DNA of 64,000 bases, taken from positions 16,237-80,236 of the forward strand of contig SLJK01000032.1 in the NCBI GenBank assembly GCA_007135125.1. The letters are read 5' to 3'. Under the pieces are notes generated by a model. It did no database searches. It was given only the letters and a program-made list of their open reading frames with translations, and was not told the origin of the DNA. Both the position numbers and the translations under genes were made by a program. The stretch is from Syntrophomonadaceae bacterium. GTDB taxonomy: Bacteria > Bacillota > Dethiobacteria > DTU022 > UBA8154. This document shows positions 1 to 50,075 of the stretch, one piece after another. Numbering within the stretch: the stretch's first letter is position 1; each line of letters begins with the position of its first letter.

Positions 1-159
1 GCTCTCGATCCTGACTCCAATAAGCTAATTACTTCGCGGATCTTGATCGATGCTACCACGCCCTACGAATGGGAAAACAAGCCCCAAGAAGTAGCCATGG
101 ACAGTGAGACCATGGAGAAAGTTCACTCTCGCTGGAAAGAGTACGGTTTTGACTTTTAA
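1..159 (+). CDS. UbiD-family (de)carboxylase, C-terminal fragment (5' truncated by window edge)
   Basis: Frame 1 reads ALDPDSNKLITSRILIDATTPYEWENKPQEVAMDSETMEKVHSRWKEYGFDF*. The W-x-KYGF C-terminal motif parallels the C-terminus of the complete UbiD paralog at 2937-4370 (…LANWEKYGFTK). Confidence 0.55.
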   Translation, partial: ALDPDSNKLITSRILIDATTPYEWENKPQEVAMDSETMEKVHSRWKEYGFDF

Positions 160-229
160 CGTCTTTCAGCATATTGTGTTAAAAGCCACTTATCCCCAAA
201 AAATGTTATATGAAAGGAGTTAACATCCA

Positions 230-772
230 ATGATGCAAAAAAATGTTGCTCAAGCTGTGGAGAAAGCAAAAAAAATTAAGCTTGTTGTTTTCGATGTCCA
301 TGGAGTATTAACTGATAATACGGTTATTTACGATGATGAAGGGAGGCGCTTACGGGCTTTTTGCCATGAGGATGGTTTTGGTTGTAATGCGCTGATGCTT
401 ATGGGTGTCGAGGTGGCCGTAATCACCAGGAAGTCAAAATCAGTAGCCGCCAGGATGGAAGATATCGGGATTAAACGGTTTTACCAAACCAAGGAAAAGA
501 TTGTCCAGTATGAACAACTACTAGAAGAACTTGGCATAACTGATGAAGAAGTTTGTTATGTGGGTGATGAAATTATTGATATCGGGGTAATGAAAAGAGT
601 TGGGTTTGCCGTAGCTCCTTCCGATGCAAAAACAATGGCTATGGATGTGGCGCACTGGGTTACCGAAAAAGCGGGGGGGAAAGGTGTAGCGAGAGAACTT
701 GCAGAGTTTATCCTGGAAGCACAGGGTAAATGGGGGACTTTCTGTGAAAAGGTAATGAGTAAAGGCTGGTAA
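230..772 (+). CDS. HAD-IIIA phosphatase, KdsC/YrbI-like (candidate PpcD-like phosphatase subunit)
   Basis: 180 aa. LVVFDVHGVLTD (DxDGV-type motif I), VITRKSK, YVGDEIID and GGKGVARE match KDO-8-P phosphatase-family motifs. RBS GAAAGGAG upstream. Confidence 0.8.
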   Translation: MMQKNVAQAVEKAKKIKLVVFDVHGVLTDNTVIYDDEGRRLRAFCHEDGFGCNALMLMGVEVAVITRKSKSVAARMEDIGIKRFYQTKEKIVQYEQLLEELGITDEEVCYVGDEIIDIGVMKRVGFAVAPSDAKTMAMDVAHWVTEKAGGKGVARELAEFILEAQGKWGTFCEKVMSKGW

Positions 773-912
773 CAATTCCCTTTTATGTAGGATAGTGTTT
801 AGGGTAAAATGTTAATTCTTGGAAGGGATTTTTATTTTATTGTCTTATAATACGATTAGTACAATGTGTTTTGGTTCTGGCTGGGGCCAGTTAGAAAAGG
901 GGCTAGTAGCTT

Positions 913-2856
913 ATGGATAAAAACAATCTCTCCTTTCCGTTTTTCGAACAGTCCTCCTCAGAGGACAACTGGTACGGGCAGGATCTGAACAGAGAAACGG
1001 AAAAACATAATAGTCAGTTACTTGCTTCGGGAGAGTCGAGAAGAGAGCTTCTTAAAGAACGTAAAAGGGTGATTCAGTGGAGGATATTAAATGAAGCCAC
1101 TGCCATCTTAAATTCTCAGCTGCACTCGGAAAGCCTTCCCCTTAAATTTATTAAATGTGCAAAGAAATTAGTCTCTGCCGGAGAGGCGCTCTTGGCTTTA
1201 AAAGAAGAAAAAGATGCGAGTCTGACTATTATTAAACATTACTCCACTACCGAGGGTTCTGGGGAAAAGCTGGTTGAAGAAAAATCCCAAAACCCTCAGG
1301 GTGCCATCAAGATTATTATGGAAAACGAAGAAGTTATTAATAGGAACTCATCGCAATTTCCTTCTCATGAACTTTACGGTTTTTATTCCATAAAAAAGAG
1401 TCTTCTGGGGATCCCGATCTATGCAAGCGGGAAAGTTATAGGTGCCCTTTTGATGGCCAACAAATGGGAAGAGGATTCTTTTACCCGTGACGACCAGGAG
1501 CTGCTGCTAATTTTAGGTGCCCAGCTGGGTATAGCCCTGGAAAACTCCAGGCTTTATGAAAAAACTGATGAGAAGCTGCAGGCAAAAGTGGAAGAGTTGG
1601 AACAGGTTAACGACCTTCTGACAAAAAAACATAAAGTGCTGGCTAAATCTTTGGAAATTCACAAGCAGTTAACCGATTTAGCTCTGCGAGGGGAGGGAAT
1701 AGAAGCTATCTGTAACACCCTGGTCTCCATTATTGGTTCACCAATTCAGGTTGAAGATTGTGCCTTTAATATTAAGGCAACGACCATGGAGCACTTAACC
1801 GGGGATTTTCTTAGTGGCAGGAACCTGGTAGATGGTTGTGGATATGAGCGACACTCAAATGAGCTTTTTAAAGGAAGAAAAGCGGTGGAAATTACCCTGG
1901 ATTCTAACACTACTCAATATATGGTCCCTATTATTGCAGGTCAGCAAGTCCTGGGGATCATAACCACGGTTTATGCAGATAGGTCTCTTGGCCAGCTAGA
2001 TAGGGTGGCTATGGAACAGGGAGCAACCATTATTGCCCTGGAAATGCTGAAGGAAAAAGCTGCCGTGGAGCAAACTCGACGCTTGCGGGAACACTTTTTG
2101 GAGCAGGTGCTGGAAAAAGATTATGAAAGCGAAGAGTGGGTGCATCATCGTGCTCTGCAGCTGGGATTTAATTTGAAGCATGCCTGCCAGGTGATGACAG
2201 TGGAGATCGAGCCCGGCCCAAAAGACAGGAGCCGGCCTGAACTATACCAGGAAATAAGGGAGTTCTATATAGACTCTACTACCAATGTTATTGTTATTAT
2301 CAAACATAATAGGGCCATAGTAATGCTCTCTTTCGACCCCCTGGAAGAGAAAGACGGGGTCAAACACCTTGCCGAATTGTTAAAGAAGTGGCTGGAGCAG
2401 TCGGTACAGGACGGCACCTGGTGGATTGCCCTGGGTACTATTTGCTATCAATTAGAAGACTGCGCTATTTCCTACCGAAAGGCAATTACAACTCTTGACA
2501 TTATGAAGGCTTTAAGGCTTACCCAAAAAATAGTTTCCAACGATAACCTGGGGATCTTTTCATTGATCGAAATTAACACCCAAAACTTTGCAGAATTCAC
2601 GCAAAGAACCCTGGGAGAGCTGTTGGATTATGATCAGAAGCATAAAACGCAGCTGGTGAGCACTTTAAACCTGTACTATAGACATAATGCTAATGTCCTG
2701 AAAGCATCCCGCCAGGGCTACCTGAATCCCAGCACCATGAAATACAGGTTGCGGAGAATACAGGAGATCACTGGTTTGGACTTAAAAGATGCCGATGTAG
2801 GCTTGCAGCTGCAGTTTGCTCTGAAATTAATGGAATTTGTTTGGTCAGATAGTTGA
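913..2856 (+). CDS. GAF-domain / PucR (CdaR)-family transcriptional regulator
   Basis: 647 aa. Central GAF-like block (…GIPIYASGKVIGALLMANKWEED…LGIALENSRLYE), a coiled-coil, and a C-terminal PucR-type HTH (…STMKYRLRRIQEITGLDL…). Confidence 0.7.
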   Translation: MDKNNLSFPFFEQSSSEDNWYGQDLNRETEKHNSQLLASGESRRELLKERKRVIQWRILNEATAILNSQLHSESLPLKFIKCAKKLVSAGEALLALKEEKDASLTIIKHYSTTEGSGEKLVEEKSQNPQGAIKIIMENEEVINRNSSQFPSHELYGFYSIKKSLLGIPIYASGKVIGALLMANKWEEDSFTRDDQELLLILGAQLGIALENSRLYEKTDEKLQAKVEELEQVNDLLTKKHKVLAKSLEIHKQLTDLALRGEGIEAICNTLVSIIGSPIQVEDCAFNIKATTMEHLTGDFLSGRNLVDGCGYERHSNELFKGRKAVEITLDSNTTQYMVPIIAGQQVLGIITTVYADRSLGQLDRVAMEQGATIIALEMLKEKAAVEQTRRLREHFLEQVLEKDYESEEWVHHRALQLGFNLKHACQVMTVEIEPGPKDRSRPELYQEIREFYIDSTTNVIVIIKHNRAIVMLSFDPLEEKDGVKHLAELLKKWLEQSVQDGTWWIALGTICYQLEDCAISYRKAITTLDIMKALRLTQKIVSNDNLGIFSLIEINTQNFAEFTQRTLGELLDYDQKHKTQLVSTLNLYYRHNANVLKASRQGYLNPSTMKYRLRRIQEITGLDLKDADVGLQLQFALKLMEFVWSDS

Positions 2857-2936
2857 ACATGTGCTGTGCTTCATTTGGAAGAAGGTAGTTAGAGGTATTA
2901 AGTTGAAATTAAAATATAAAGGAGGCTGTGCAAAAG

Positions 2937-4370
2937 GTGTATAAAGACAACCGAGAATTTATGAAAGCGCTGGAGGCTGCAGGAGAACTGGTTACCATTG
3001 ATCAGGAAGTGGACTGGGACATGGAAGCGGGAGCAATAGTCCGCAAGGTTTGTGAAGACAAGGCACCTTCTCCCCTGATGAACAAAATCAAGGATTACCC
3101 CGGGCATCGATACCTGGGAGCGCCCCTGGCAAACTACCGCAAGTTGGCCATAGCTATGGGCATGGATCCGGATAGCAGTATCCCTGAGATTGCTGCAGAA
3201 TACTTGGAGCGCACCAACAGAGAACCGGTAAAACCTGTTATTGTTGAAAAAGATCAGGCACCTTGCAAGGAAAATATTATTACAGGCGATGATGTTGACC
3301 TTTTTACTCTGCCTGCTCCCATGGTCCATGAAGGTGATGGGGGACGGTACCTGGCAACCTGGCATTTTGTGGTAACCAAGGACCCTGACAAGCAGGAAGT
3401 TAACTGGGGAATGTACAGGCAGATGGTTTATAATTCCAAAATAATGACCGGACCGCTATTTCCTTTTTCCGGTGGTGGCCAGGTTTTCCACGGGAAATAT
3501 GTTCCCCGCGGTGAGGCTATGCCTTTTGCTACTGTGATTGGCCCGGATCCCCTTGGTGCTATTGCGGGTTCCGCCCCCACAGCTATCCCTGAGCCGGAAT
3601 ATACGGGGCAGCTTTTGGGGAAACCTGTGGAACTGGTGAAATGTGAAACAGTGGATTTGGAAGTCCCCGCCAATGCCGAAATAATTATTGAGGGGTATAT
3701 TCTTCCTGATGTATCGATAGAGGAGGGACCTTTCGGTGAGTACACTGGTTACCGTACTTCTCCGAGAGATACTCGCACGGTTTACCAGGTAACTGCCATC
3801 ACCCATAGAAATGATCCCATAACCACCATTTCCAATATGGGTGTTCCCACCGACGAGGGGCAGCTTTTGCGTTCTTTCACCCTGGGTTTGGAAATGGATA
3901 GGATGCTTCGCAACCAGGGTATCCCTATAACGGGAGTGTATATGCTGCCCGAATCGACTCACCACCTGGTTGTAGTTGGAGTTAAGCCGCTTTATACTAA
4001 TATAGCGGCACAAATTGCTCAAACTGTTTTTGGTAGTTCGCTGGGTATGTGGTTCCATATGGTTGTGGTAGTAGATGATAAAACAGATATTTATAATTTC
4101 AACGAAGTTTTGCATGCCCTAAGTACTCGCTGTCATCCTGTAAACGGCATACATGTCTGGCAGGGAGTGGGGACACCCCTCTATCCTTTCCTCAGCGCGG
4201 CGGAAAGGAAGAAATCAGTAGGCCCTAAAGTTCTCTTTGACTGCACCTTCCCGTTGGACTGGGATCCATTAAGCGAGGTGCCCAGACTTGTTTCTTTCAA
4301 GACAGTTTATCCCCAGGAGATCCAGGACAAGGTTCTGGCCAACTGGGAAAAATATGGCTTTACAAAATAG
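2937..4370 (+). CDS. UbiD-family prFMN-dependent (de)carboxylase (phenylphosphate carboxylase alpha/beta-like)
   Basis: The ORF track starts at GTG 2928. GTG 2937 has better AGGAGG spacing and gives MYKDNREF…, typical of a UbiD N-terminus. About 478 aa, with UbiD-like blocks throughout (…GPFGEYTGYR…, …WHFVVTKD…). Confidence 0.8.
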   Translation: MYKDNREFMKALEAAGELVTIDQEVDWDMEAGAIVRKVCEDKAPSPLMNKIKDYPGHRYLGAPLANYRKLAIAMGMDPDSSIPEIAAEYLERTNREPVKPVIVEKDQAPCKENIITGDDVDLFTLPAPMVHEGDGGRYLATWHFVVTKDPDKQEVNWGMYRQMVYNSKIMTGPLFPFSGGGQVFHGKYVPRGEAMPFATVIGPDPLGAIAGSAPTAIPEPEYTGQLLGKPVELVKCETVDLEVPANAEIIIEGYILPDVSIEEGPFGEYTGYRTSPRDTRTVYQVTAITHRNDPITTISNMGVPTDEGQLLRSFTLGLEMDRMLRNQGIPITGVYMLPESTHHLVVVGVKPLYTNIAAQIAQTVFGSSLGMWFHMVVVVDDKTDIYNFNEVLHALSTRCHPVNGIHVWQGVGTPLYPFLSAAERKKSVGPKVLFDCTFPLDWDPLSEVPRLVSFKTVYPQEIQDKVLANWEKYGFTK

Positions 4371-4386
4371 TAAAGGAGGAAATATA

Positions 4387-4641
4387 ATGGCTCGCTATGA
4401 TGTTTTTATAAACAGCTTGGCAGATCTGCCTGAAGGAAAAGAGGTTCAACTTGCGATAAGGGATCTTTCGCCGGGAATTCATAAGTACTGCTATCAGGAT
4501 GTACTGGCCATGGTCTCTCCTGACCCCGAGAAATATGATGAAAAAATGCAGGTTCGTTATGGCAGGGGACAGGCACATCCACAACTATTCTCTATCAAAA
4601 TACAGGAGAATGTTGAAAGGATTCCGGAGCGATGGAGGTAG
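4387..4641 (+). CDS. small (85 aa) protein translationally coupled between two UbiD paralogs (candidate PpcC-like small subunit)
   Basis: The ORF track lists 4288-4641. The plausible start is ATG 4387, directly after the upstream stop and with RBS AAAGGAGGAAATATA. MARYDVFINSLADLPEGKEVQLAIRDL… The 3' end overlaps the next UbiD start by 10 nt. Confidence 0.5.
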   Translation: MARYDVFINSLADLPEGKEVQLAIRDLSPGIHKYCYQDVLAMVSPDPEKYDEKMQVRYGRGQAHPQLFSIKIQENVERIPERWR

Positions 4642-5999
4642 ACTTAAGAAGTTTTCTTCATACTTTAAAAGAAAATAAAGAACTTATAGAACTTGAGGAC
4701 GAAGTCAGCCCCCGTTACGAAGTTACTTCCATTTTCAAAGAGGTGCTGGGGGAGCAGGGAGGTCCGGCTGTCCTTTTGCACAATGTGAGCGGTTATCCCG
4801 GCCGGAAGTTGGCAGGGAACCTTTTGGCCAGCCGTGAAAAGATGGCTTTAGCCCTGGGGTGCCAGGTGGAAGATTTAAGGGACGCATATCTGAAAGGGCG
4901 CTTTGCTTCCCTGGAGCCTGTGCAGGTGCAAGGTAGTGCTCCGGCACAGGAAGAAACAGTGGCAGAAGAGATAGATCTTCTATCTCTTCTGCCCGCACCT
5001 ATTTTTCATCAGGGTGATGCCGGGCCTTACCTTACAGCAGGTGTGCTTTTGGCTAAAGATCCCGATACAGGGGTAATGAACAGTGGAATTCACAGGCTGC
5101 AACTAAAAGGCAAAACTAGGCTGGGGGTGTTTCTGGCTACACCGCCTCTGTCAAATTATTTCAAGAGATCTGAAGAAGAAGGTAAACCCCTGCAGGTGGC
5201 AGTAGCATTAGGTCTGCATCCAGCCGAGCTTTTAGCAGCAGCCGTTTCTCTTAAGGAGGGCATGAAAAGCAAGATTCATCTGGCCGGAGGTTTAGCCGGA
5301 CGAGGAATGCCGCTTACTCCAGCCAAAACCCTGGATATGATGGTGCCAGCCACGGCGGAAATTATCCTAGAGGGACATTTACTTCCTGGTATAAGAGAAG
5401 CAGAAGGACCTTTTGGAGAAAGTACCGGCTATTATTTTGAGGCGGAAAGCCCCATTTTGGAGATACAAGCGGTTACGTTTCGTAAGGATCCCATTCTTAC
5501 CGTTATTCCGCCCTGGGGAATCGAAACGGATATTATACTTGCAGTTTTTAGCGGAGCTGAACTGTGGAAGGAGCTGCACAGGGTTATTCCTGAAGTAAGA
5601 GATGTTACTTTTTTACCGGGCTCCCTCACTTTTCAGGGAGTTATCCAGGTGAGTGAATCACTTTCCAGGGAAAAAATAAGGCAACTGATTTACCTGGCTT
5701 TAAATTTGGATCGACGCCTGAAACACGTGATAGTGGTCGACGATGATGTGGATATTCATAGTTCTAGAGAGGTTTTATGGGCACTGGGGACTCGTTTTCA
5801 GGGCTCTACTGACCTCATTTGCCTCCCGGGCCTGGAAGGGTATGTTATTGATCCTTCCACCCAGGAAGGAGAAACAGCGAAACTTGGTTTTGATGCAACT
5901 GCACGACCGGAGGGGCCATATAGCAAGCGTTACCGGAGTCTTTCCCTTCCCCGGGAATCAATTTTAAAGGCAAAAAACATTCTGGAACAGAGGAGATGA
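4632..5999 (+). CDS. UbiD-family (de)carboxylase paralog
   Basis: 455 aa (MEVDLRSFLHTLKENKELIELEDEV…GPFGESTGYY…). Second complete UbiD paralog. Start overlaps the small ORF and the stop overlaps ubiX (ATGA). Confidence 0.8.
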   Translation: MEVDLRSFLHTLKENKELIELEDEVSPRYEVTSIFKEVLGEQGGPAVLLHNVSGYPGRKLAGNLLASREKMALALGCQVEDLRDAYLKGRFASLEPVQVQGSAPAQEETVAEEIDLLSLLPAPIFHQGDAGPYLTAGVLLAKDPDTGVMNSGIHRLQLKGKTRLGVFLATPPLSNYFKRSEEEGKPLQVAVALGLHPAELLAAAVSLKEGMKSKIHLAGGLAGRGMPLTPAKTLDMMVPATAEIILEGHLLPGIREAEGPFGESTGYYFEAESPILEIQAVTFRKDPILTVIPPWGIETDIILAVFSGAELWKELHRVIPEVRDVTFLPGSLTFQGVIQVSESLSREKIRQLIYLALNLDRRLKHVIVVDDDVDIHSSREVLWALGTRFQGSTDLICLPGLEGYVIDPSTQEGETAKLGFDATARPEGPYSKRYRSLSLPRESILKAKNILEQRR

Positions 6000-6610
6000 T
6001 GCCCGTGCGAATCGTAGTGGGTATATCCGGTGCGACTGGAGTGATCTACGGGATTAGGATCATGGAAATACTCAAGGAGCTTGAAGTGGAAACTCACCTG
6101 ATAATATCCGATGCAGGTAAGAAAAACATTGAGCTGGAAACCGGGTACGAAGTGGCCAGAGTTGAAGCGCTGGCGACAGAAGTTCATGATATATGTAACG
6201 TAGGTGCTTCTATTTCCAGTGGTTCTTTTAAAACCCATGGTATGATTGTTGCTCCCTGTTCTATCAAGAGCCTTTCTGCTATTGCTAATTCTTTCAATAA
6301 TAACCTGCTTATCAGGTCGGCAGATGTTACTTTAAAGGAAAAAAGAAAGCTGGTTATGATAGTAAGGGAGACGCCCTTGCACGTAGGTCATTTGCGGCTT
6401 ATGACAATGGTGGCGGAGGCAGGGGGAGTGCTGCTACCTCCAATGCCTGCTTTTTATAATCACCCTGAAACATTAGAAGATATGATTGACCAGACGGCGG
6501 GAAAAGCTCTGGACCAGTTCGGCATTGAGCATAACCTCTTTAACCGTTGGTACGGTACCGATTCGGCCAGAAGAAGAAACAAAGAAGCTTTAAAAAGGGG
6601 TTTGTTGTAA
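5996..6610 (+). CDS. ubiX: flavin prenyltransferase UbiX (prFMN synthase)
   Basis: 204 aa. IVVGISGATGVIYGIRIMEIL…MIVAPCSIKSLSAIANSF…RETPL is a classic UbiX/Pad1 flavoprotein. The start may be ATG 5999. Confidence 0.85.
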   Translation: MMPVRIVVGISGATGVIYGIRIMEILKELEVETHLIISDAGKKNIELETGYEVARVEALATEVHDICNVGASISSGSFKTHGMIVAPCSIKSLSAIANSFNNNLLIRSADVTLKEKRKLVMIVRETPLHVGHLRLMTMVAEAGGVLLPPMPAFYNHPETLEDMIDQTAGKALDQFGIEHNLFNRWYGTDSARRRNKEALKRGLL

Positions 6611-6614
6611 ACTC

Positions 6615-7139
6615 ATGGAAGAAATTATCGAAAGCAAGGAAATCTTTAACGGAAAAATTATCCGTGTCCGCCTGGATAAAGTAAGACTTCCCGATGGAAA
6701 GGAAAGTCAAAGGGAAATTGTGCAGCTCGGCGGCGCTGTAGCTATGGTGCCAGTTGATGAGAAAGGAAATATTTATTTCGTTAGACAATATAGAAAGCCC
6801 ATTGAAAAAGTTTTACTTGAAATACCGGCAGGGCGACTTGAACCGCCAGAAATTCCTGAGGATTGTGCTCGCCGGGAATTAGCAGAAGAGATCGGTTTGT
6901 GGCCGGATAAAATTAATAAACTTTCAGATTTCTTTTCCTCGCCTGGTTTTTCCAACGAGAATATCACTATATTTTTGGCCAGGAATTTGAGGAAGAGCAA
7001 AATGCGTCCGGATGAAGGAGAGTTTATTGATGTGGTATTATATCCTTTCTCTAAAGCATTAGCCATGATTAGTAGTGGAGAGATTCAGGACGGTAAAACA
7101 ATTGCGGGACTCCTGTTGGCCCATTATTTTCTGCAGTAG
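6615..7139 (+). CDS. NUDIX hydrolase (ADP-ribose pyrophosphatase NudF-like)
   Basis: 174 aa. Nudix box GRLEPPEIPEDCARRELAEEIGL (Gx5Ex7REUxEExGU). Confidence 0.8.
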   Translation: MEEIIESKEIFNGKIIRVRLDKVRLPDGKESQREIVQLGGAVAMVPVDEKGNIYFVRQYRKPIEKVLLEIPAGRLEPPEIPEDCARRELAEEIGLWPDKINKLSDFFSSPGFSNENITIFLARNLRKSKMRPDEGEFIDVVLYPFSKALAMISSGEIQDGKTIAGLLLAHYFLQ

Positions 7140-27940: not shown

Positions 27941-28284
27941 TCAATTGACCCTCCTTCAAAGTTTTAAAAAAATAAACAACCCCTCTTGTAATACCCGACG
28001 CCGACTTTTTATCACCACCTTTCTTATGAATACGTTACTAAAATAGTTACAGTGAAAATCACTACAGTCAACTATCCCTTGGAACATTCTGAAAATAATC
28101 TATGTTAACTCTATCACAAATAATTTATGGAATCAAGCCATTTTTCATGTACTAAAAATGGACAAATGAAAAATTCCAGGAAATTAAGTGGGATACGAAA
28201 AAATATTTCGCCTACTGTAGTTATTTATAACAAATATTGCAAATATATAACTATCCCTAATACTTGCCAGCTGTGGCTTGATCT

Positions 28285-28428
28285 TTAAAGTAAGTATCGA
28301 GAAACCAGGAAAAGGATTATTCCAATTAGAAGAAGGGTAAGCCCCAGCCTGACGATGAGCATGACTCCTTTAATAAACAATATTAGAATAATCAAGGCTG
28401 CCAGTATTAGTAACGGTACGTAAAGCAT
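28285..28428 (-). CDS. hypothetical 47-aa two-helix hydrophobic peptide (not in ORF track)
   Basis: MLYVPLLILAALIILILFIKGVMLIVRLGLTLLLIGIILFLVSRYLL*. RBS GGGGAGGAA overlaps the SDR stop. Confidence 0.25.
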   Translation of the reverse strand: MLYVPLLILAALIILILFIKGVMLIVRLGLTLLLIGIILFLVSRYLL

Positions 28429-28442
28429 CACCGGTTCCTCCC

Positions 28443-29210
28443 CTATACCGTCATTGAGCCTCCATCTACCATAATAGTTTCTCCTGTAATATAACTGGAT
28501 GCCTCCGAGGATAAAAATAATACCGGATGAACGATTTCAGACGGTTCGGCAATTCTGCCCAGGGGAATATTGTTGATTATATTATCGTAGTTTTCTTGGT
28601 TGGACCAGAAAGGTTTGCTGAAATGGGTTTTTACCATGGCCGGCGCCACAGCATTAACCTGGATATTATACGGAGCTAGTTCTGAGGCCAGCACTTTGGT
28701 AAGCATTTCTAAACCGGCTTTTGCTATACCGTAAATTCCCATTCCGGCAGAAGCTTTTCGTGATGCTATGGAAGAGATATTAATAATTTTGCCGCTTTGT
28801 TGTTCTTTCATGATCTCGGCAGCTTTTTTTGAACAGAGAAACGTTCCTCCCAGGTTTGTCTCTACGATTTTTTGCCACAGGGAATAGTCAGTTTCTAATG
28901 TAGATGGAGTAACCAGATTCATACCCACATTATTGACAAGGACGTCAAGACGTCCAAACTTTTCCAGGGTAGCCCTGAAAAGTTTGGCTACATCTTCTTC
29001 CCTGGCAATATGTGCGGTCATCGCCAGTACATTATCTTTATTGTCAAGGCCTTCCAGGACAGCCTCTATTCCTTCTTTCTTTCTGCCGCAGAAAGCCACC
29101 TTTGCTTTTTGTTCTAACAGCGTCTTTACCATCTCCAGGCCAATACCCCTGGTTCCCCCGGTTACTAAAAACACTTTATTTTCCAGGCCATACCAACAAT
29201 TAGAAGGCAT
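28443..29210 (-). CDS. short-chain dehydrogenase/reductase (FabG-like)
   Basis: TGGTRGIG Rossmann motif, NNVG, S…YxxxK (IYGIAKAG) catalytic motif. Confidence 0.8.
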   Translation of the reverse strand: MPSNCWYGLENKVFLVTGGTRGIGLEMVKTLLEQKAKVAFCGRKKEGIEAVLEGLDNKDNVLAMTAHIAREEDVAKLFRATLEKFGRLDVLVNNVGMNLVTPSTLETDYSLWQKIVETNLGGTFLCSKKAAEIMKEQQSGKIINISSIASRKASAGMGIYGIAKAGLEMLTKVLASELAPYNIQVNAVAPAMVKTHFSKPFWSNQENYDNIINNIPLGRIAEPSEIVHPVLFLSSEASSYITGETIMVDGGSMTV

Positions 29211-29403
29211 CCAAAACTCCTTTCGTTAACCGCATCTTCTCAAAACATTTTGTCTTTTTTATAAAGATTCTCTTAAGTAATAAAAATTCCTTCCCTTGCG
29301 AAAATATTTATAAGGGAAAATATGTCAAGGTTAACAAATATTTTTAGACACAAAAATTGAAACGATCCTTGTCGGGTTAGTTACATCCTTGGGCGAGTTA
29401 GGG

Positions 29404-29432
29404 TTGATTTTTTTACAAAAAAATAATATAAT
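29404..29432 (+). promoter_or_regulatory. sigma-A promoter for tRNA-Arg(CCT)
   Basis: TTGATT, a 17-nt spacer, then TATAAT, about 30 nt upstream of the tRNA 5' end. Confidence 0.4.
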
Positions 29433-29467
29433 ACCTGCAGCGTTGATAGGCTTCTTTACACAGGTGA

Positions 29468-29543
29468 GCACCTGTAGCTCAGGGGATAGAGCACCGGATT
29501 CCTAATCCGGGTGTCGGAGGTTCGATCCCTCCCAGGTGCACCA
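29468..29543 (+). tRNA. tRNA-Arg (anticodon CCT), CCA encoded
   Basis: 76-nt cloverleaf folded by hand: acceptor GCACCTG/CAGGTGC, anticodon stem CCGGA/TCCGG, loop TTCCTAA, T-loop TTCGATC. Confidence 0.8.
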
Positions 29544-29585
29544 TTTTTATGGCTAAACTTTTTTGCTTGGCAGCTAAATTAATAA

Positions 29586-29621
29586 AAGGATGCTTCCTAA
29601 GAAAGGAAGCATCCTTTTATT
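29586..29621. terminator. intrinsic terminator between tRNA and thiolase (bidirectional)
   Basis: 12-bp stem AAGGATGCTTCC / GGAAGCATCCTT, a 7-nt loop, flanked by A-run and T-run. Confidence 0.5.
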
Positions 29622-29681
29622 AAAAAGAGTTATTTTTCGAAAACCCGGTTAAATACAAATTGATTGTTTACTGCATAATGA

Positions 29682-30878
29682 TTAACCGGTTACCTTAACA
29701 ATGAGGCTGGCACCTGTGTCGCCGGCGGCACATCCGGTAAAGAGCCCGTAACCACCGCCCACTATGACTAATTCTTCGATCATTTCAGCAATACATCGAC
29801 CGGCAGTAGGTCCCTGCGGGTGCCCGAATATCATAGAGCTGCCATAGTTATTGAAGCTCATGGGGTCTAATCCCATTTTTTTGGACATATATACATCATT
29901 AGCAGCAAAAGGGTTGTGTGTTTTTATAACTTTTATATCTTTCAGGGCAAGCCCAGCATTTTTCAGTGCATTTTCCGCTGCCGGCACAGGGGCAGCAGCC
30001 ATAAACCCTTTATCTACCCTGGTGAATCCATAGGAGACAACCTGTATCTCTACGTTTTTGTCCGCACTTAATTCCTGTGCTTTTTCTTTGGTGGTAACGA
30101 TAAAACCACAGTTGCCATCGGCAGGATGGGTTTGGACTCCAGAACTGTGCACGCCGTCTGGTAGGAACGCTTTAAGGGAAGCAAGCCCTTCTTTAGTTCT
30201 TGGTGTGACTCCTTCGTCGGCTTCCAGGGTGCCCCTTTTCTTCCTGCTGATCTTATATTCCACGGGAAACATATAACGTTTCTGGAATTCGCGGTCGTTA
30301 GCGAGAGATTCCTGGTACTGCTCGTAACGACGAAGGGCAACTTCATCACAGAGTTCCTTGGTAATTCCTTCAATTGAGCAAGCAGTATTCTCCGCTGTTT
30401 TGATCATGGGGAGTCCTACCCAGGGGTCGGCATTGAAGTTATCCATCATCCAGTTTTCAGAGATTACTTCGCCACCCGGGCCCAACGGGTTAGGCCAAAC
30501 CGTATGAGGTCCGTTGGAGCAACGGTCTGTCATAAGACAGAAAGCCAGGTTAAGGTTTCCTGTTTCCACGTTCATGGCTGCATAATTGAGACATGTGGTA
30601 GATGTGGAGCAAGCTTGAGAAATATGCAAAGCAGGAACCTGTTCTGCCCCCAGCATGCCGCCGGCCCAGGTGGATGCATAAAATGTGTGCAGCTGCCCTA
30701 TTGTTTTTCCAAAAACAACGTAATCGATCATTGCCGGATCAAAACTCTTTGAGTCAAGCCACCGCTTGGCAGTGACTGCCCCCAGCTCGATAGCATTGTC
30801 ATTTTGCAGGCTGCCCTGCCAGCGTGCGAATGGTGAGCTGAAGTAGCCACGGAATGGAATAAACGCTTTTTCATACAT
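29682..30878 (-). CDS. thiolase-family acyl-CoA acetyl/acyltransferase
   Basis: …QACSTSTTCLNYAA… (active-site Cys), C-terminal …GCAAGDTGASLIV… The track ORF extends to 30995. ATG 30878 with RBS AAGGAGG is the likely start (MYEKAF…). Confidence 0.8.
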   Translation of the reverse strand: MYEKAFIPFRGYFSSPFARWQGSLQNDNAIELGAVTAKRWLDSKSFDPAMIDYVVFGKTIGQLHTFYASTWAGGMLGAEQVPALHISQACSTSTTCLNYAAMNVETGNLNLAFCLMTDRCSNGPHTVWPNPLGPGGEVISENWMMDNFNADPWVGLPMIKTAENTACSIEGITKELCDEVALRRYEQYQESLANDREFQKRYMFPVEYKISRKKRGTLEADEGVTPRTKEGLASLKAFLPDGVHSSGVQTHPADGNCGFIVTTKEKAQELSADKNVEIQVVSYGFTRVDKGFMAAAPVPAAENALKNAGLALKDIKVIKTHNPFAANDVYMSKKMGLDPMSFNNYGSSMIFGHPQGPTAGRCIAEMIEELVIVGGGYGLFTGCAAGDTGASLIVKVTG

Positions 30879-30931
30879 TGAATGAAACCTCCTTGATAAT
30901 AATTCAACTACTCCCGAATTTAGTCGGTGGT

Positions 30932-30945
30932 AGTTTGATTTGCTG
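30932..30945. promoter_or_regulatory. perfect 14-bp palindrome GCTGCTTAAGCAGC (candidate operator) upstream of thiolase
   Basis: Self-complementary 14-mer 54-67 nt upstream of the thiolase start codon. Confidence 0.25.
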
Positions 30946-31282
30946 CTTAAGCAGCCCCAAATTATGCAACCGCAAAAATATCTAACCTCATACAAACAAA
31001 AAATGATACAGCTTATCCGCGCATGTTGTCCCCGCTATGGATTGTACACCTCCTTTTTGTGCATGATTGGAAAAAGTGATGCCGGTATCCGATAAACAGC
31101 TATTCAATGAATATTTCAACTTCCTCTTTGTATATTCGCCATAAATAATGCTTTCCCTGCCAGCTGCACTTCAAAAAGGTTTATCAATAATTAACGGTCT
31201 GCTACAAAAAAAATCAAAGATAAGAGGAATGGGGTCGACAGGTGCAGAAAAATAGATAAAGCAAAGAAAGGGGGATTGGTTA

Positions 31283-36443: not shown

Positions 36444-38264
36444 GTGCCTAAATATTTCAAAATTATCTTTTTATTACTGGTTTTTATAATTGCGTTGGCA
36501 GTTTTTTGCTTATTACTTTTCTCTCCTGAGTTTTTGAAAAAAACTTTTTTTGAAGGACAGCCGCAAACATACACCGAAGAGGATATTGATAAAAGGCGTT
36601 ACCCCGAGTCCTCTGAAATAGTGCAGGAGCTATTTAAGCTGGAAAAACTTCTCGAAAAACCTATTCCCGAAAACGAAGAAAGCCTGCTTGCTTTTGCAGA
36701 TCGGGAAGATGCTATCGGTTACACTGCAGCACTGGCGTTGGCCCGTTTTTATGCTGAGGACGGGCGGGATGCCAGGCCACTTTTCCTAAAAGCCCTTAAT
36801 CTGTACAAGACTACCAATGTAGAAAAAGAATTGGCTGCCTATCTTAAAGAAATGGGTTATGAGGAAGAGGCCAGGGCAAAATATTATCAACTGCTGCCTG
36901 ATAGTGATGCTAAGGACAATCTGCTTAAACTTGGCGTTACTCCTTTAGATATTAGCTACTCACTATATGATGGTGCGCATTTTAGGGAACTGGCAAGCTT
37001 TTTGGAGCCTTATCTGGACGATTTTGAGATTGAAGAACTGCGTTATTTGCTTGCAGCTGCTCTTGTCAATACAGGAGAATATGCAAAAGCGCTCCCCCTA
37101 TTAGAAGATTTAATGCAGGCAGATGCATTGTTTCTGGAGACAGACAATGAAGCAGATAGGCGCAGTATCGAATGGTATTATGCTCGCACTCTGGAAGCGG
37201 TAGGGGAAACTGCAAAGGCACTTTCCTTGTATGAAGAAATTGGCCGGGAAGGCAGCTACCGTAAGGGAATAATCTATAATGCTAGAGATAATAAAGCGGA
37301 TGCAGCGGAAGCTTTTAGTACTTCTCCAGAACAAGCGGGACGGTGGTGGGGCGCAAGGTTGTGGGAAGAATTGGGGCAAACTCAACAGGCACTCCCTATT
37401 TACATGCAGCTGGCCCGCGAAGAAGGTTATGTGCAAGATGATGCTGCTTATAGGGCTTATCTGCTTCTTTCCAGGGACGAAGACCCCCGGGCCGATGAGT
37501 TTTTAGAATATCTTGCTGCAGAGCCGGCATGGCTGACCAGATTAGGTAAAGAGCCCCTTTGGGAGACAAAGGAACCTTTGCCACCGGTAAATCCTTCTTT
37601 TATTAGTAGAGCAGAAGCATACCGGGAACATGGAAGAGACGAAATGGCTGCTTTGGAATTGGCTATTGGGGAAGCACTTGCTTCACCGAAAGAGTTTCTG
37701 GCTCTTGGAAATTGGCATCTGCAGCAGGAAAATTATTTTAAAGCGGTGAGATTAGGAATAGAGTTATTAGAGGAGCATCCCTGCCCTGAGAGTTATCGGC
37801 TCGCTTTCCCCAGACCTTATAAGGAAGAGGTGGAAAAAGCAGCGGAAGAATACCGACTTGCTCCCCATCTTATTTGGGCGGTAATGCGTGAAGAAAGCCA
37901 TTTTCGGCCTGCCGTAATTTCGCCGGCAGATGCAAGAGGTTTAATGCAGGTGATGCCTTCCACTGGTCAGGATATTGCCGAGCGTGAGGGAATGGAAATA
38001 AGCTTGACAGACCTTTTTGATCCGGAACTGAACATCAAGTTCGGGGCTTGGTACCTTCGTGCTATGCTGGACAGTTTCGATGAAGACTATGATAGAGCTT
38101 TAGCGGCTTATAATGCCGGGCCCAGTAATGTACGGCGGTGGGGCAGTAGTCCTTTGGGGGAGGAGGATGGCGGTTTTCCTACAGCTATAACTTATAGAGA
38201 AACGAGGCAGTATGTTACCAGGGTAATGAATACTTTCCTGACCTACGACTGGCTTTATAATTGA
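36444..38264 (+). CDS. lytic transglycosylase (SLT domain) with N-terminal TPR-like repeats, membrane-anchored
   Basis: C-terminal …ESHFRPAVISPADARGLMQVMPSTG…AYNAGPSNVRRW is the SLT family-1 catalytic Glu context. N-terminal TM. Confidence 0.8.
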   Translation: MPKYFKIIFLLLVFIIALAVFCLLLFSPEFLKKTFFEGQPQTYTEEDIDKRRYPESSEIVQELFKLEKLLEKPIPENEESLLAFADREDAIGYTAALALARFYAEDGRDARPLFLKALNLYKTTNVEKELAAYLKEMGYEEEARAKYYQLLPDSDAKDNLLKLGVTPLDISYSLYDGAHFRELASFLEPYLDDFEIEELRYLLAAALVNTGEYAKALPLLEDLMQADALFLETDNEADRRSIEWYYARTLEAVGETAKALSLYEEIGREGSYRKGIIYNARDNKADAAEAFSTSPEQAGRWWGARLWEELGQTQQALPIYMQLAREEGYVQDDAAYRAYLLLSRDEDPRADEFLEYLAAEPAWLTRLGKEPLWETKEPLPPVNPSFISRAEAYREHGRDEMAALELAIGEALASPKEFLALGNWHLQQENYFKAVRLGIELLEEHPCPESYRLAFPRPYKEEVEKAAEEYRLAPHLIWAVMREESHFRPAVISPADARGLMQVMPSTGQDIAEREGMEISLTDLFDPELNIKFGAWYLRAMLDSFDEDYDRALAAYNAGPSNVRRWGSSPLGEEDGGFPTAITYRETRQYVTRVMNTFLTYDWLYN

Positions 38265-38833
38265 GGGTTTTTTATCTTTTGAAGTTCTTTGGCGGCAATC
38301 TCCTTTGCCAGATCCGTAAAAAACCAATGCTTGATAAATTGTTGCAGCATTTTCCGGTATTCTACCCGCTCTATTGCGAAACGTTCAGCATCAATGGAAA
38401 AGCCTTCTGGAGAAAAACGGAAAAGCTTGTCGGCATCTTTAACGATTTTCTCCTCCAGGGAGATTGCCTTTTCGCTGGAATCATGGCTTTCGATAATCCG
38501 GCATATTTCCAATCTGTTCTCTTCTTTTACAGAGGTTTGTTTCAATAGCCTGGCGGCAATTTTTGCACCTTCCACTTCGTGAATACGCCGGATATTTTCA
38601 TCAATTTTTCTTGGTCCGAACGCTAACAAGTGTTGTTCTGTGGGAACGGCACTCCAGCCCACATCGTGCAGGATGATAGCAGGCATAACAATTTCTGGAT
38701 CTCCGCCCAGTTTTTCCAATAATTGCTGGGCAAAATTATAGCAGATTTCTGTATGCACCTGGTTGTGCCTGACAGTTAAATAAGGTTTTGCCAGCTCGAA
38801 GAGTTCATTCCATTTATCATCATCATAGGACAT
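38255..38833 (-). CDS. HD-domain metal-dependent phosphohydrolase
   Basis: …ILHDVGW… (HD motif) with additional H…D residues. It follows the CoA ligase gene 18 nt downstream and is likely co-transcribed. Confidence 0.7.
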   Translation of the reverse strand: MSYDDDKWNELFELAKPYLTVRHNQVHTEICYNFAQQLLEKLGGDPEIVMPAIILHDVGWSAVPTEQHLLAFGPRKIDENIRRIHEVEGAKIAARLLKQTSVKEENRLEICRIIESHDSSEKAISLEEKIVKDADKLFRFSPEGFSIDAERFAIERVEYRKMLQQFIKHWFFTDLAKEIAAKELQKIKNPQL

Positions 38834-38850
38834 AGTTTTTCTCCTTTATT

Positions 38851-40431
38851 TCATAAGGAGCGGAGCTTGAAGCGCTGTATTTTGCCGGTGGTGCTTTTCG
38901 GCAATTCGGCAGCTATTTCGATCCAACGTGGATACTTGTACTTGGCCAGCCTTTCCAGAACCCAGTTTTTTAGCTCCTCCTCCAGATTTTCCACCCTCTC
39001 ATGACTTTCGCGGAGTACTACAAAGGCTTTCGGCTTTATCAGGTTGTTTTCGTCAGCTTGCCCTATTACAGCAGACTCAAAGACAGCTGGGTGACTGTTA
39101 AGGCAATTTTCAATTTCCACCGGAGATACCCAAATCCCGCCGACTTTTAACATATCGTCAGACCTTCCTGCACACCAGTAGTATCCATCTTCATCCACGT
39201 AAAATTTGTCTCCCGTATTTATCCATTCCCCCTGCATGGTTATGCGTGTTTTTTCGCGTTTACGCCAGTATTGCTGAGCTGCGCTGTCACCTTTAACCAG
39301 CAGTGTCCCTATTTCACCCTGGGGCACTTCGTCTCCCTGGTCATCTACCAACTTCAATTCATATCCCGGAACCGGTTTGCCGGTGGAACCTGGTTTTATT
39401 TCGCCGGGACGGTTGGAGAGGAAGATATGAAGCATTTCACTCGACCCCATGCCGTCTAAAATATCTATCCCAAAACGTTTTTTCCAGCGGTGGTAGAGAT
39501 CCTCCGGCAGCGCTTCCCCTGCTGATACACATATTCTTACAGAAGATAATTCGTGGTTTCCGTTAGGGTCAGGGGTTGTTCCTGTTTCCTGATCTTGATG
39601 TTCTTTATACTTCAACATCTGCCCATAAAGGGTGGGAACACCGAAAAACACCGTGGGGCGGTAATATTCCAGGTTTTTGAAAACATTTTCCGGTGAAGGG
39701 GGACGAGAGTCCAGGACGGCGGAAGCTCCTACAGAGAGAGGGAAGTACATACCATTTCCCAAACCGTAGGCAAAAAACAGCCTGGCCGGGGAATAGCAGA
39801 TATCTTCTTCAGTCAATTCCAGCACCTCTTTTGCATAATTATTAGAGGTAACGACCATGTCATACTGGGAATGAATGGCTCCTTTTGGAGGTCCTGTAGA
39901 ACCTGAGCTGTAAAGCCAGAAACCTACATCATCTTTAGTTGTGCGTGCGGTTTTGAGCATGGTAGGGGCCTGCCTGTACTTTTGCTTGAAAGGAATATGA
40001 GCCCCATTAATCTCCGAGATGACTATTAGATCACGCAAATAATATAATTCTCCCTTAATGTTTTGTACAACGGGCTGCATTTCATCAGAAATTACGAGTG
40101 CTCGCACACGGCTGTCGTTAAGATAATATTCGTAATCTTCAGGGGTGAGCATGGTGTTAACCGGTATGGGCACCGCCCCAATTTTAATAGCCCCCCAAAA
40201 TACTGCGTAAAATTGTGGAACATCCAGCATGATAATAAGTATTTTGTCGTCGATTCTCAGGCCGAGTTCCCTAAATCCATTGGCAGTCTTATTTGCCATT
40301 TTGTGGATATCATTATAAGAATAATTGCGGTGTGCCGTATAAACGGCGACTTTATGTCCCCGACCCTGCCTGATGTTACGATCCAAAAAATAGTCAGCGG
40401 CATTAAAAAATTCCTGTTCTACCCCATGCAC
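38851..40431 (-). CDS. aromatic acid-CoA ligase of the benzoate/4-hydroxybenzoate-CoA ligase (BadA/HbaA/BclA) family
   Basis: Block-by-block match recalled from BadA: FWLYSSGSTGPPKG, RLFFAYGLGNGMYFP, SSEMLHIFLSN, DMLKVGGIWVSP, LAKYKYPRWIEIAAELPKSTTGKIQRFKLR. Confidence 0.85.
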   Translation of the reverse strand: MHGVEQEFFNAADYFLDRNIRQGRGHKVAVYTAHRNYSYNDIHKMANKTANGFRELGLRIDDKILIIMLDVPQFYAVFWGAIKIGAVPIPVNTMLTPEDYEYYLNDSRVRALVISDEMQPVVQNIKGELYYLRDLIVISEINGAHIPFKQKYRQAPTMLKTARTTKDDVGFWLYSSGSTGPPKGAIHSQYDMVVTSNNYAKEVLELTEEDICYSPARLFFAYGLGNGMYFPLSVGASAVLDSRPPSPENVFKNLEYYRPTVFFGVPTLYGQMLKYKEHQDQETGTTPDPNGNHELSSVRICVSAGEALPEDLYHRWKKRFGIDILDGMGSSEMLHIFLSNRPGEIKPGSTGKPVPGYELKLVDDQGDEVPQGEIGTLLVKGDSAAQQYWRKREKTRITMQGEWINTGDKFYVDEDGYYWCAGRSDDMLKVGGIWVSPVEIENCLNSHPAVFESAVIGQADENNLIKPKAFVVLRESHERVENLEEELKNWVLERLAKYKYPRWIEIAAELPKSTTGKIQRFKLRSL

Positions 40432-40530
40432 GGTTTAAACGCCTCCTCTTTGCGCCAAGAGAGAATATTTAGAAACTTCTGTTTGATAAAAAAGCGACTC
40501 TCCATCTAAAAGAGCCGCCTGCCTTAATGG

Positions 40531-40605
40531 TGGTACGCCCGCAGGGATTCGAACCCCGACTTCAGGCTCCGGAGGCCTGCGTGATATCCCTTTCACCACG
40601 GGCGC
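40531..40605 (-). tRNA. tRNA-Arg (anticodon CCG), CCA encoded
   Basis: 75-nt cloverleaf on the minus strand: acceptor GCGCCCG, anticodon loop CTCCGGA, T-loop TTCGAAT. Confidence 0.8.
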
Positions 40606-40616
40606 AGGGTATTTTT

Positions 40617-40645
40617 ATGATATCATCGACTTCGAAAAAAGTCAA
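40617..40645 (-). promoter_or_regulatory. sigma-A promoter for tRNA-Arg(CCG)
   Basis: Minus strand reads TTGACT, a 17-nt spacer, then TATCAT, about 10 nt upstream of the tRNA. Confidence 0.35.
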
Positions 40646-49577: not shown

Positions 49578-50075
49578 ATGGTTTTGTGCCAGTGCCAGGA
49601 AGCGGCAACTTCTGTGGAAGAGAACTTTGAGTATGAGAAAGTAGAAAGTCTGTTGCAGGATTACCTGGATAAGAAGGGGGTCATGGTCCCCATTTTACAG
49701 GCAATCCAGGAAGAATTTGGCTACCTCCCACGACCAGCCCTGGAATATGTGGCAAAAAGACTGCGTATACCGGTGAGCAAGGTTTTTGGGGTAGCCACTT
49801 TTTATGCGCAATTTCATCTTGAACCCAGGGGTGAAAATATTATCCGGCTTTGTCGTGGAACTGCTTGTCACGTCAGGGGAGTAGCTAAAGTAGCTGACAA
49901 GATGCAGGAGCATCTTGGTGTCGATGTGGGTGGTACTACGCCAGATATGAAATTTACTTATGAAGAGGTGGCTTGTATTGGTGCGTGTGGCTTAGCGCCG
50001 GTAATGATGATCAACGACCGGACCTTTGGAAAGTTGGAGCCGGATAAATTAAAGGGTATCCTGGAGCAGTTTTAA
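49578..50075 (+). CDS. NuoE/FdsG-like [2Fe-2S] thioredoxin-fold subunit of NAD-linked formate dehydrogenase
   Basis: …LCRGTACHVRG… …ACIGACGLAPVM… carries the four-Cys 2Fe-2S motif of NuoE/HndA. Confidence 0.85.
   Translation: MVLCQCQEAATSVEENFEYEKVESLLQDYLDKKGVMVPILQAIQEEFGYLPRPALEYVAKRLRIPVSKVFGVATFYAQFHLEPRGENIIRLCRGTACHVRGVAKVADKMQEHLGVDVGGTTPDMKFTYEEVACIGACGLAPVMMINDRTFGKLEPDKLKGILEQF

Follow-up and report, generated by a model that had tools for sequence, protein, structure and literature searches.

Why would a bacterium carry a gene for an aromatic-acid CoA ligase with a gene for a small HD-domain phosphohydrolase immediately behind it? The two genes lie on the minus strand of a 64,000-nucleotide stretch of a Syntrophomonadaceae genome (contig SLJK01000032.1, positions 16,237 to 80,236; hereafter the window), where the ligase open reading frame (ORF) occupies 38851-40431 and the HD ORF 38255-38833. 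An earlier reading made without database searches (the sequence-only reading) had placed both ORFs here on one strand, and both indeed prove real. Here we describe the ligase as a member, by strong profile matches far above chance, of the benzoate-CoA ligase family, and we file the HD protein as a CreD-family HD phosphohydrolase, a full-length homologue of proteins that occupy the CreD position in actinobacterial cre-type clusters. We propose that the pair constitutes a small catabolic operon for two consecutive steps that would feed hydroxy-aromatic acids into the benzoyl-CoA pathway, an answer to which we give an even chance of being right.

Organization of the ligase-HD operon

The features of the predicted operon, in the direction of its transcription, are as follows.

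40492..40645, minus strand: upstream boundary of the operon, with promoter TTGACT-17-TATCAT, tRNA-Arg(CCG) at 40531-40605 and an intrinsic terminator at 40520-40492
40432..40491, minus strand: leader of the ligase gene, with GGAGG at 40446-40442 and only a weak candidate promoter, TTATCA-16-TATTCT
38851..40431, minus strand: aromatic-acid CoA ligase, benzoate-CoA ligase family, 526 amino acids (aa), GTG start, GGAGG 10 nt upstream
38834..38850, minus strand: ligase-HD spacer of 17 nt, carrying the ribosome-binding site (RBS) AAAGGAG of the HD gene
38255..38833, minus strand: HD-domain phosphohydrolase, filed as CreD-family, 192 aa, ATG start, AAAGGAG 7 nt upstream

The sequence-only reading had the HD gene 18 nt downstream of the ligase gene; the order on the strand stands, and the distance is corrected to 17 nt. 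Its proposal of co-transcription is borne out as the default reading, because the short gap contains an RBS and a consensus scan of the minus strand in and near the gap gave no promoter-like or terminator-like site.

The strong promoter ahead of the operon belongs to tRNA-Arg(CCG), which is transcribed from the same strand as the ligase gene and ends in a terminator with a 12-bp stem. A promoter scan of the 60 nt between this terminator and the ligase GTG gave no consensus sigma-70 promoter. Expression of the operon might possibly occur by read-through of the tRNA terminator, and it is possible that the ligase-HD pair was once inserted at the tRNA-Arg gene. The arrangement of tRNA-Arg, promoter and terminator is kept in the closest relative (locus L081, 8130-8290; surveyed loci are cited by number), where the layout of the ligase leader also recurs. 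An Rfam scan found two tRNAs only, and no riboswitch or leader RNA. At its other end the HD gene overlaps the convergent SLT transglycosylase gene (36444-38264) by 10 nt (38255-38264), which leaves no space for a terminator between them; the two genes are 36 nt apart in the closest relative.

The ligase belongs to the benzoate-CoA ligase family

The ligase carries both ANL domains (PF00501, 258 bits; PF13193, 65 bits) and matches the benzoate-CoA ligase model TIGR02262 over residues 9-525 of 526 with 651.1 bits against a cut-off of 375.25. All ANL core motifs are present, namely the P-loop SSGSTGxPKG, the hinge D in DDMLKV and the catalytic Lys in PK[ST]xTGKIQRFKLR, and they align with those of BadA, the benzoate-CoA ligase BCL and AuaEII. 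The pocket motifs LFFAYGLGNG and GSSEMLHIFLSN equal those of BadA and BCL save for one conservative S/T exchange. Within them, F220-A221-Y222 and L334-H335-I336, which we take to be positions that line the aryl pocket, are identical to BadA and BCL, and A221 is variable (A/S/G) inside the clade of the window ligase. Thus, the sequence-only reading was right in assigning a benzoate-CoA ligase match, as it was in describing the C-terminus, which reads PKSTTGKIQRFKLRSL.

By sequence, the solved structures matched by the ligase are AuaEII (503 bits), Burkholderia BCL (464 bits) and BadA (432 bits), at identities of 44.7-46.8 %. With BadA of Rhodopseudomonas palustris and BCL of Burkholderia xenovorans LB400 (PDB 4eat, 2v7b) the ligase has in common its TIGR02262 membership, its length and its two-domain ANL architecture, along with the P-loop, hinge and C-terminal catalytic-lysine motifs and the pocket motifs FFAYGLGN and GS[ST]EMLHIFLSN, the S/T position excepted. 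However, identity to these two enzymes is only 44.7-46.5 %, and the ligase falls in a separate clade in which we identified no characterised member. AuaEII, the anthranilate-CoA ligase of Stigmatella aurantiaca (PDB 4wv3), is the top-scoring solved structure at 46.8 % identity, but it sits in another clade, and its pocket motifs (FFTFGTGGN, TENFHIF) differ from those of the window ligase (FFAYGLGN, EMLHIF), so that its high score gives no pointer to an anthranilate substrate.

These placements come from a neighbour-joining tree of 119 sequences, built from the three solved enzymes, close relatives of the window ligase and representatives of the family gathered in an exhaustive search. The characterised anchors are AuaEII, BCL and BadA. 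The ligase forms a tight clade of its own, sister to unnamed representatives and apart from the BadA/BCL and AuaEII clades; a grouping with anthranilate or aliphatic ligases, which would have counted against the sequence-only reading, was not found. An identity as an anthranilate-CoA ligase is ruled out by the separate clade together with pocket motifs unlike those of AuaEII. Members of the ligase clade are 74-91 % identical across Bacillota, Syntrophorhabdia/Syntrophorhabdus and Desulfobacterota, and 74-78 % identical when members from different phyla are compared. This unusual conservation suggests that the clade is under strong constraint, or that one enzyme type has spread horizontally among anaerobic aromatic degraders, or both. 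Clade members are solitary genes in unrelated contexts.

What, then, is the substrate? The TIGR02262 family includes benzoate, 4-hydroxybenzoate and 2-aminobenzoate ligases, so membership leaves the substrate unfixed. The JGI names of the ligase orthologues are mostly 4-hydroxybenzoate-CoA ligase and in some cases benzoate-CoA ligase, and the nearest representatives at 50 % identity bear only the name "benzoate-CoA ligase family protein", with no characterised member identified among them. Benzoate and 4-hydroxybenzoate specificity are hard to predict from ligase sequence (PMC5852087). We consider the substrate to be probably one or the other of these two acids.

The HD protein is a homologue of CreD-position proteins

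The HD protein matches PF01966 (52 bits against a cut-off of 22), and its AlphaFold2 (AF2) model has a predicted local distance difference test (pLDDT) score of 94. The complete set of metal ligands (H27, H56-D57, H85, H117-D118 and D133/D135) is invariant in an alignment of 32 family members (A1). The small HD hydrolases YpgQ of Bacillus subtilis, YedJ of Escherichia coli and 2pq7 share only about 20 % identity with it, without a significant sequence-level match, and two of the invariant histidines, H85 and H117, are extra relative to these proteins.

Closer relatives emerge from a tblastn search of 72,556 plasmids, which gave hits in exactly two records. Each is from Rhodococcus, with identities of 37 % and 32 % over 89 % of the protein. 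In these the HD gene is part of a cluster with the order IclR, P450, PPDK_N, PEP-utilizer, SDR, 2Fe-2S, FAD reductase, HD and aldehyde dehydrogenase, and an HD homologue lies in an identically ordered cluster on a Microtetraspora chromosome, so that this synteny is found in two Rhodococcus species and in Microtetraspora. The cre operon of Corynebacterium glutamicum, which serves a 4-cresol pathway that starts with phosphorylation, has the order creJ-I-H-G-F-E-D-C (cg0645 to cg0637), and its creD (cg0638) is listed as a phosphohydrolase (PMC7764795). The Rhodococcus and Microtetraspora clusters are colinear with this operon, and the HD gene stands at the position of creD. Reviews that name CreD do not state its fold. 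The enzyme reportedly converts 4-phosphobenzoate to 4-hydroxybenzoate.

The relationship between the window protein and the CreD-position proteins extends over their full length. BLASTP against the HD proteins of the Rhodococcus clusters gives E values of 8e-22 (L088) and 1e-37 (L087) with all metal-site motifs aligned, and in an hhalign profile comparison the family from anaerobes (A1) and the one at the CreD position in actinobacteria (A2) match over 181 columns (99.9 %, E 3.3e-34). The shared motifs are RxNxxH, LHDxGW, HExxG, GHD[ST] and [KR]DAD[KR]LxR, at an overall identity of 30-37 %. Unlike the genes of the cre clusters, the HD gene of the window belongs to a genome of strict-anaerobe type and adjoins a CoA ligase gene, without a kinase, P450 or dehydrogenases nearby.

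The cre-type cluster on the Rhodococcus ruber plasmid NZ_CP129900.1 (L087) holds two HD paralogues, at 11965-12576 and 20093-20764. One is at the CreD position; the other lies upstream of the IclR regulator and is closer to the window protein (37 % versus 32 %).

The HD family accompanies phenylphosphate-synthase-like kinases

The surroundings of the HD family were surveyed by scanning one genome per species among GTDB representatives. Of the 380 relatives detected, 79 loci were retained, and more than 1300 relatives occur in the protein collection; neighbours were counted as clustered ORFs within 6 kb of the HD gene. The most frequent neighbour is a PEP-utilizer and PPDK_N pair, the architecture of phenylphosphate synthase (Pps), present at 30 of the 79 loci. 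The other counts are given below.

LysR-type regulators 18, UbiD 15, SDR 15, ANL ligases 13
Aldehyde:ferredoxin oxidoreductase (AOR) 12, NUDIX 9, Mo-hydroxylases 9

Also recurrent are PpsC-like proteins with two CBS domains, riboflavin kinase/HAD proteins (RFK-HAD), UbiX and a "phenol MetA" outer-membrane channel. Taken together, 45 loci have within 6 kb at least one gene of the pps-like, UbiD/UbiX or ANL-ligase groups, and 50 have at least one of Pps-like, UbiD, ANL, AOR, NUDIX and Mo-hydroxylase. The HD gene is the last of a co-directional run at 41 of 69 loci.

As an internal control, we compared the density of each marker with its distance from the HD gene in five bins from 0-2 to 8-10 kb. 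PPDK_N density drops about 5-fold, with 0.52 genes per 10 kb in the nearest bin and 0.11 in the farthest. Within 2 kb of the HD gene lie 9 of 10 NUDIX genes, 6 of 8 RFK-HAD genes and 8 of 14 AOR genes, and the density of UbiD peaks at 4-6 kb. ANL ligases are flat over the five bins (5, 5, 2, 5, 3). This profile singles out the kinase pair, with a few accessory genes, as the specific partners of the HD family; ligases are not among them. Co-occurrence of the HD protein with aromatic ligases, a check proposed in the sequence-only reading, is limited: 13 loci have an ANL gene within 6 kb, two have an adjacent benzoate-type ligase, and proximity brings no enrichment. An HD gene with a promoter of its own and an unrelated context elsewhere would have counted against that reading. 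The gene shows no promoter of its own in the window; its contexts elsewhere do differ gene by gene, although they are thematically related through anaerobic aromatic catabolism.

Some individual loci are more explicit. The HD gene is in or beside genuine pps/ppc clusters in Syntrophorhabdus, in a Clostridia metagenome-assembled genome (MAG) and in Thermincola. Recurrent arrangements include an operon found in Desulfomonile, Syntrophaceae and Bacillota MAGs (L092 1-8606, L043, L049, L065, L052, L071) with the order (AOR, HAD), two FAD-oxidoreductases, SDR, PEP-utilizer, PPDK_N, (NIPSNAP, ABM), HD, (AOR). In gene content it resembles a version of the cre operon that would work without O2, the P450 system being absent, and we found no description of it in the literature searched. 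Two further arrangements recur in a set of loci that comprises L039 (9971-11130), L040, L048, L069, L027, L033, L062 and L074. In Desulfobacterales a NUDIX gene follows the HD gene with a 4-nt overlap, an instance of translational coupling; a LysR regulator gene lies upstream of the pair, and an operon of PEP-utilizer, PPDK_N and UbiD genes is transcribed divergently from it. A gene for a CTP-dependent riboflavin kinase/HAD protein adjoins the HD gene in Geobacter and Syntrophobacteraceae.

A literature search yielded no paper linking an HD domain with phenylphosphate, benzoate-CoA ligase or UbiD/UbiX, and the Geobacter and Desulfatiglans papers make no mention of an HD gene of this kind. That the HD family is a recurrent part of anaerobic aromatic-catabolic islands, as well as a homologue of CreD, seems not to have been described in the literature that we searched.

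A precedent for joining a phosphatase to a CoA ligase

Is there a known pathway in which a phosphatase and an AMP-forming ligase act in succession? In the acetovanillone pathway, the Pps-like kinase HpeHI phosphorylates the phenol, and a biotin carboxylase acts only on the phospho-intermediate; the HAD-type phosphatase HpeD then strips off the phosphate group, and the product of the neighbouring gene hpeE is an AMP-forming CoA synthetase (PMC9618137). The same study also points to CreHI of C. glutamicum. In both logic and adjacency, HpeD and HpeE of Rhodococcus rhodochrous GD02 resemble the window pair. However, HpeD is a HAD-family (NagD-like) phosphatase where the window has an HD protein, and HpeE is an acetyl-CoA-synthetase-like ligase where the window has an enzyme of the benzoate-CoA ligase family, so that the likeness is best described as functional analogy, not homology. 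The ligase-HD adjacency has a sensible precedent, and it is not a new kind of system; both proteins are from known families.

Dethiobacter alkaliphilus (L080, JAENYV010000009.1, 302-20576) has a complete island for anaerobic aromatic metabolism. It begins with BcrBC/BcrAD-type reductase genes, DctPQM, a ligase and an HD gene, and continues with UPF0261, a carboxyltransferase, PPDK_N, PEP-utilizer, a biotin carrier, a biotin carboxylase and a PucR-type regulator. By analogy, this island looks like an Hpe/Xcc-type hydroxyacetophenone pathway in which the ligase and HD protein replace HpeE and the HAD-type HpeD.

The window encodes a TRAP transporter at 23680-30995 on the minus strand (two DctP, DctQ and DctM, with SDR and thiolase genes). 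Its DctM is 46 % identical to that of D. alkaliphilus (L080 5168-8241), where the gene is directly upstream of the ligase-HD pair, and in L002 an ANL ligase, DctPQM and HD form a single run. By comparison with these loci, the TRAP system of the window may import the aromatic-acid substrate of the ligase.

A distant phenylphosphate-carboxylase-type cluster

The sequence-only reading had tied the ligase to a UbiD cluster about 33 kb upstream. A cluster does exist at 1-7139, some 31-33 kb away. It is encoded on the other strand and, seen in the direction of ligase transcription, lies downstream. Its genes are as follows.

1..7139, plus strand: phenylphosphate-carboxylase (Ppc)-type cluster, possibly linked to the ligase-HD operon
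1-153, plus strand: PpcB-like C-terminus, last 51 codons, with TIGR02724 (beta) matched over the last 51 residues; the window edge cuts the gene
230-772, plus strand: KdsC/PpcD-like HAD phosphatase, TIGR02726 (delta) as best model, 162 bits against a cut-off of 282
913-2856, plus strand: PucR-type regulator (Pfam), between ppcD and ppcA
2928-4370, plus strand: PpcA, TIGR02723 (alpha) at 722 against 565 bits, above the equivalog cut-off
4387-4641, plus strand: PpcC-like ORF of 84 aa, unannotated, with a perfect RBS, TIGR02725 (gamma) as best model, 92.5 against 135.6 bits
4632-5999, plus strand: second UbiD, above the cut-off only of the generic UbiD-family model TIGR00148, 302 against 245 bits
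5996-6610, plus strand: UbiX
6615-7139, plus strand: NUDIX hydrolase, NudE-like, which closes the UbiD-UbiX operon

Judged by these model matches the cluster is of the phenylphosphate-carboxylase type, which favours conversion of phenol or phenylphosphate to 4-hydroxybenzoate over carboxylation of benzene. Of the two routes that had been suggested from sequence, phenol to 4-hydroxybenzoate is thus plausible and the benzene route is disfavoured.

Does this cluster serve the same pathway as the ligase-HD operon? The best support comes by analogy from Syntrophorhabdus (L017), where a single co-directional cluster reads ppcB-ppcD-ANL ligase-ppcD'-ppcA-ppcC-UbiD-UbiX and ends, after further genes, in HD; its ppcA and UbiX are 67 % and 63 % identical to those of the window. 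In the window itself, 31 kb and a number of housekeeping genes separate the Ppc cluster from the operon, which is encoded on the other strand. A search for a shared operator between the ligase leader and the promoter regions of the Ppc, TRAP, SDR and thiolase genes found T-tracts and RBS matches only, and no benzoyl-CoA reductase or 4-hydroxybenzoyl-CoA reductase genes occur elsewhere in the window. The link between operon and Ppc cluster is plausible, if indirect.

Two other interpretations of these clusters were set aside. The HD protein is not a replacement for the PpcD phosphatase subunit, for L017 and L046 each carry an HD gene alongside PpcD-like genes. Nor is L017 the Syntrophorhabdus isophthalate cluster: the isophthalate ligase is PaaK-type, and L017 has homologues of ppcA, ppcC and ppcD.

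A proposed two-step catabolic operon and its alternatives

In the catabolic operon that we propose, a Pps-like kinase would place a phosphate on the phenolic hydroxyl group, and the HD protein, acting as a metal-dependent phosphohydrolase, would remove the aryl phosphate, for example from 4-phosphobenzoate to yield 4-hydroxybenzoate and phosphate. The ligase would then convert the freed acid (4-hydroxybenzoate or benzoate) to its CoA thioester, with ATP consumed to AMP and pyrophosphate (PPi). The substrates and the order of the two steps are presumptive, as are the assignment of C. glutamicum CreD to the HD proteins and the tie to the Ppc cluster. The proposal builds on what is established: the families to which both proteins belong, the geometry of the operon, the full-length relationship between the HD protein and CreD-position proteins, and the association of the HD family with Pps-like kinases. 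The mechanism would also explain the neighbours of the HD family, with the kinase pairs corresponding to CreHI/HpeHI and the SDRs to CreG, and with AOR near HD performing the anaerobe's aldehyde oxidation, the step of CreC.

A number of observations weigh against this proposal. Gene order alone would make C. glutamicum CreD itself an HD protein, and a pocket identical to that of BadA would accept unsubstituted benzoate just as well as 4-hydroxybenzoate. The 64-kb window contains neither a PPDK_N nor a PEP-utilizer gene, and hence no Pps-like kinase; pps genes may lie just outside, since the window starts inside ppcB. A separate phosphatase is not obviously needed for a pure phenol route, because the canonical phenylphosphate carboxylase frees the phosphate itself via its delta subunit. 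At 34 of the 79 HD loci, nothing within 6 kb belongs to the pps-like, UbiD/UbiX or ANL-ligase groups, and ligases show no enrichment near HD. Only 2 of the 79 have a benzoate-type ligase gene immediately upstream in the same orientation, three ligase orthologues (73-76 % identical) are solitary in unrelated contexts without an HD neighbour, and one Dethiobacter assembly carries the ligase and HD orthologues on different contigs. Finally, the operon is immediately flanked by genes of the housekeeping type (M16 peptidases, DegV, SLT, a SurA-like protein and citrate synthase).

Of the two paired loci, one is the closest relative (L001/L081), with a ligase 90 % identical to that of the window and identical flanking synteny, where the spacer is 81 nt versus 17 nt in the window. 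The other is D. alkaliphilus (L011/L080), whose ligase is 44 % identical and of a different subfamily. No bam, bcr or hcr genes are adjacent to the ligase orthologues; the nearest approach is in L086, where a truncated HGD-D gene lies at a distance of about 10 kb. Because only these two loci are paired and ligase orthologues elsewhere are solitary, the pairing is lineage-specific.

Could the adjacency then be without functional meaning, a solitary benzoate-CoA ligase gene beside that of an unrelated phosphohydrolase, perhaps co-inserted next to tRNA-Arg? We regard this as possible but doubtful. It accords with the rarity of the pairing, the variable contexts of the solitary ligase orthologues, their separation from HD in the Dethiobacter assembly, the flat ANL profile and the 81-nt spacer of the closest relative, and with one close HD relative (70 %) that stands among housekeeping genes. 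However, the 17-nt spacing with its RBS implies co-transcription in the window, and the HD gene has been juxtaposed independently with a ligase of another subfamily in D. alkaliphilus and with other ANL ligases in L002, L008, L064 and L045-type loci. The frequency of pps-like, UbiD/UbiX or ANL-ligase genes around HD loci (45 of 79, or 50 with AOR, NUDIX and Mo-hydroxylase included) also speaks against it.

It is unlikely that the HD protein hydrolyses PPi, AMP or a nucleotide second messenger, as the sequence-only reading had suggested, or an Ap4A/p4A side product of adenylate-forming enzymes. The protein scores 17.1 bits with the YqeK model TIGR00488 (cut-off 70.15) and 24.7 bits with the HDIG model (cut-off 27.6), and its nearest functional anchor is CreD.

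Least probable, in our estimate, is a role of the HD protein in providing or recycling a prenylated-FMN precursor for UbiX and UbiD, by conversion of dimethylallyl diphosphate (DMAPP) to dimethylallyl phosphate (DMAP) or of FAD to FMN, in concert with NUDIX and riboflavin kinase: the closeness of NUDIX and RFK-HAD genes to HD, the overlap of NUDIX with the HD stop codon in Desulfobacterales, the occurrence of UbiX or UbiD at 16 of 79 loci, the NUDIX gene that ends the UbiD-UbiX operon of the window and the UbiD-UbiX-NUDIX transcript reported for a benzene-degrading culture (PMC5852087) all fit such a role, but 63 of the loci have neither UbiD nor UbiX within 6 kb, the UbiD peak lies away from HD, and the aerobic cre clusters hold an HD homologue without any UbiD or UbiX.

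Implications for anoxic aromatic degradation

More broadly, and more tentatively than for the operon itself, we suggest that strict anaerobes possess a widespread, hitherto undescribed strategy that matches the Cre and Hpe pathways but needs no O2, with the HD family as its marker and the operon of the window as its terminal module; this wider proposal is possible rather than probable. In such a route a Pps-like kinase would phosphorylate a phenolic compound and thereby mask the phenol, after which the side chain could be worked by SDR, AOR, FAD- and Mo-enzymes or by UbiD- or biotin-type carboxylases. The HD protein would unmask the phenol at the end, so that a phospho-hydroxybenzoate would yield 4-hydroxybenzoate and then 4-hydroxybenzoyl-CoA.

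If true, the generic "HD domain-containing protein" of hundreds of anaerobe genomes would gain a testable function in aryl-phosphate unmasking, and the many phenylphosphate-synthase-like kinase paralogues of strict anaerobes would be accounted for. Phosphorylation-first catabolism of alkyl- and acyl-phenols would then be common in anoxic aromatic degradation; to our knowledge it has been shown biochemically so far only in aerobic actinobacteria. For the window alone the gain is modest: two genes are better annotated, and there is a hint of phenolic compounds being degraded by this organism. The pairing suggests a testable last step of a phosphorylation-initiated route for phenol or cresol breakdown.

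Other features of the window

The source genome is of the spore-forming Bacillota type, as indicated by a Germane domain and a sigma factor encoded in the window. At 52137-54812 on the plus strand, two molybdopterin-oxidoreductase ORFs form one gene with an in-frame TGA at 53172-53174; the surrounding motif, HCARL-U-HAPTVAGL, is where formate dehydrogenase alpha canonically carries its selenocysteine. Upstream of this gene lie NuoE/NuoF-like genes (49578-52116).

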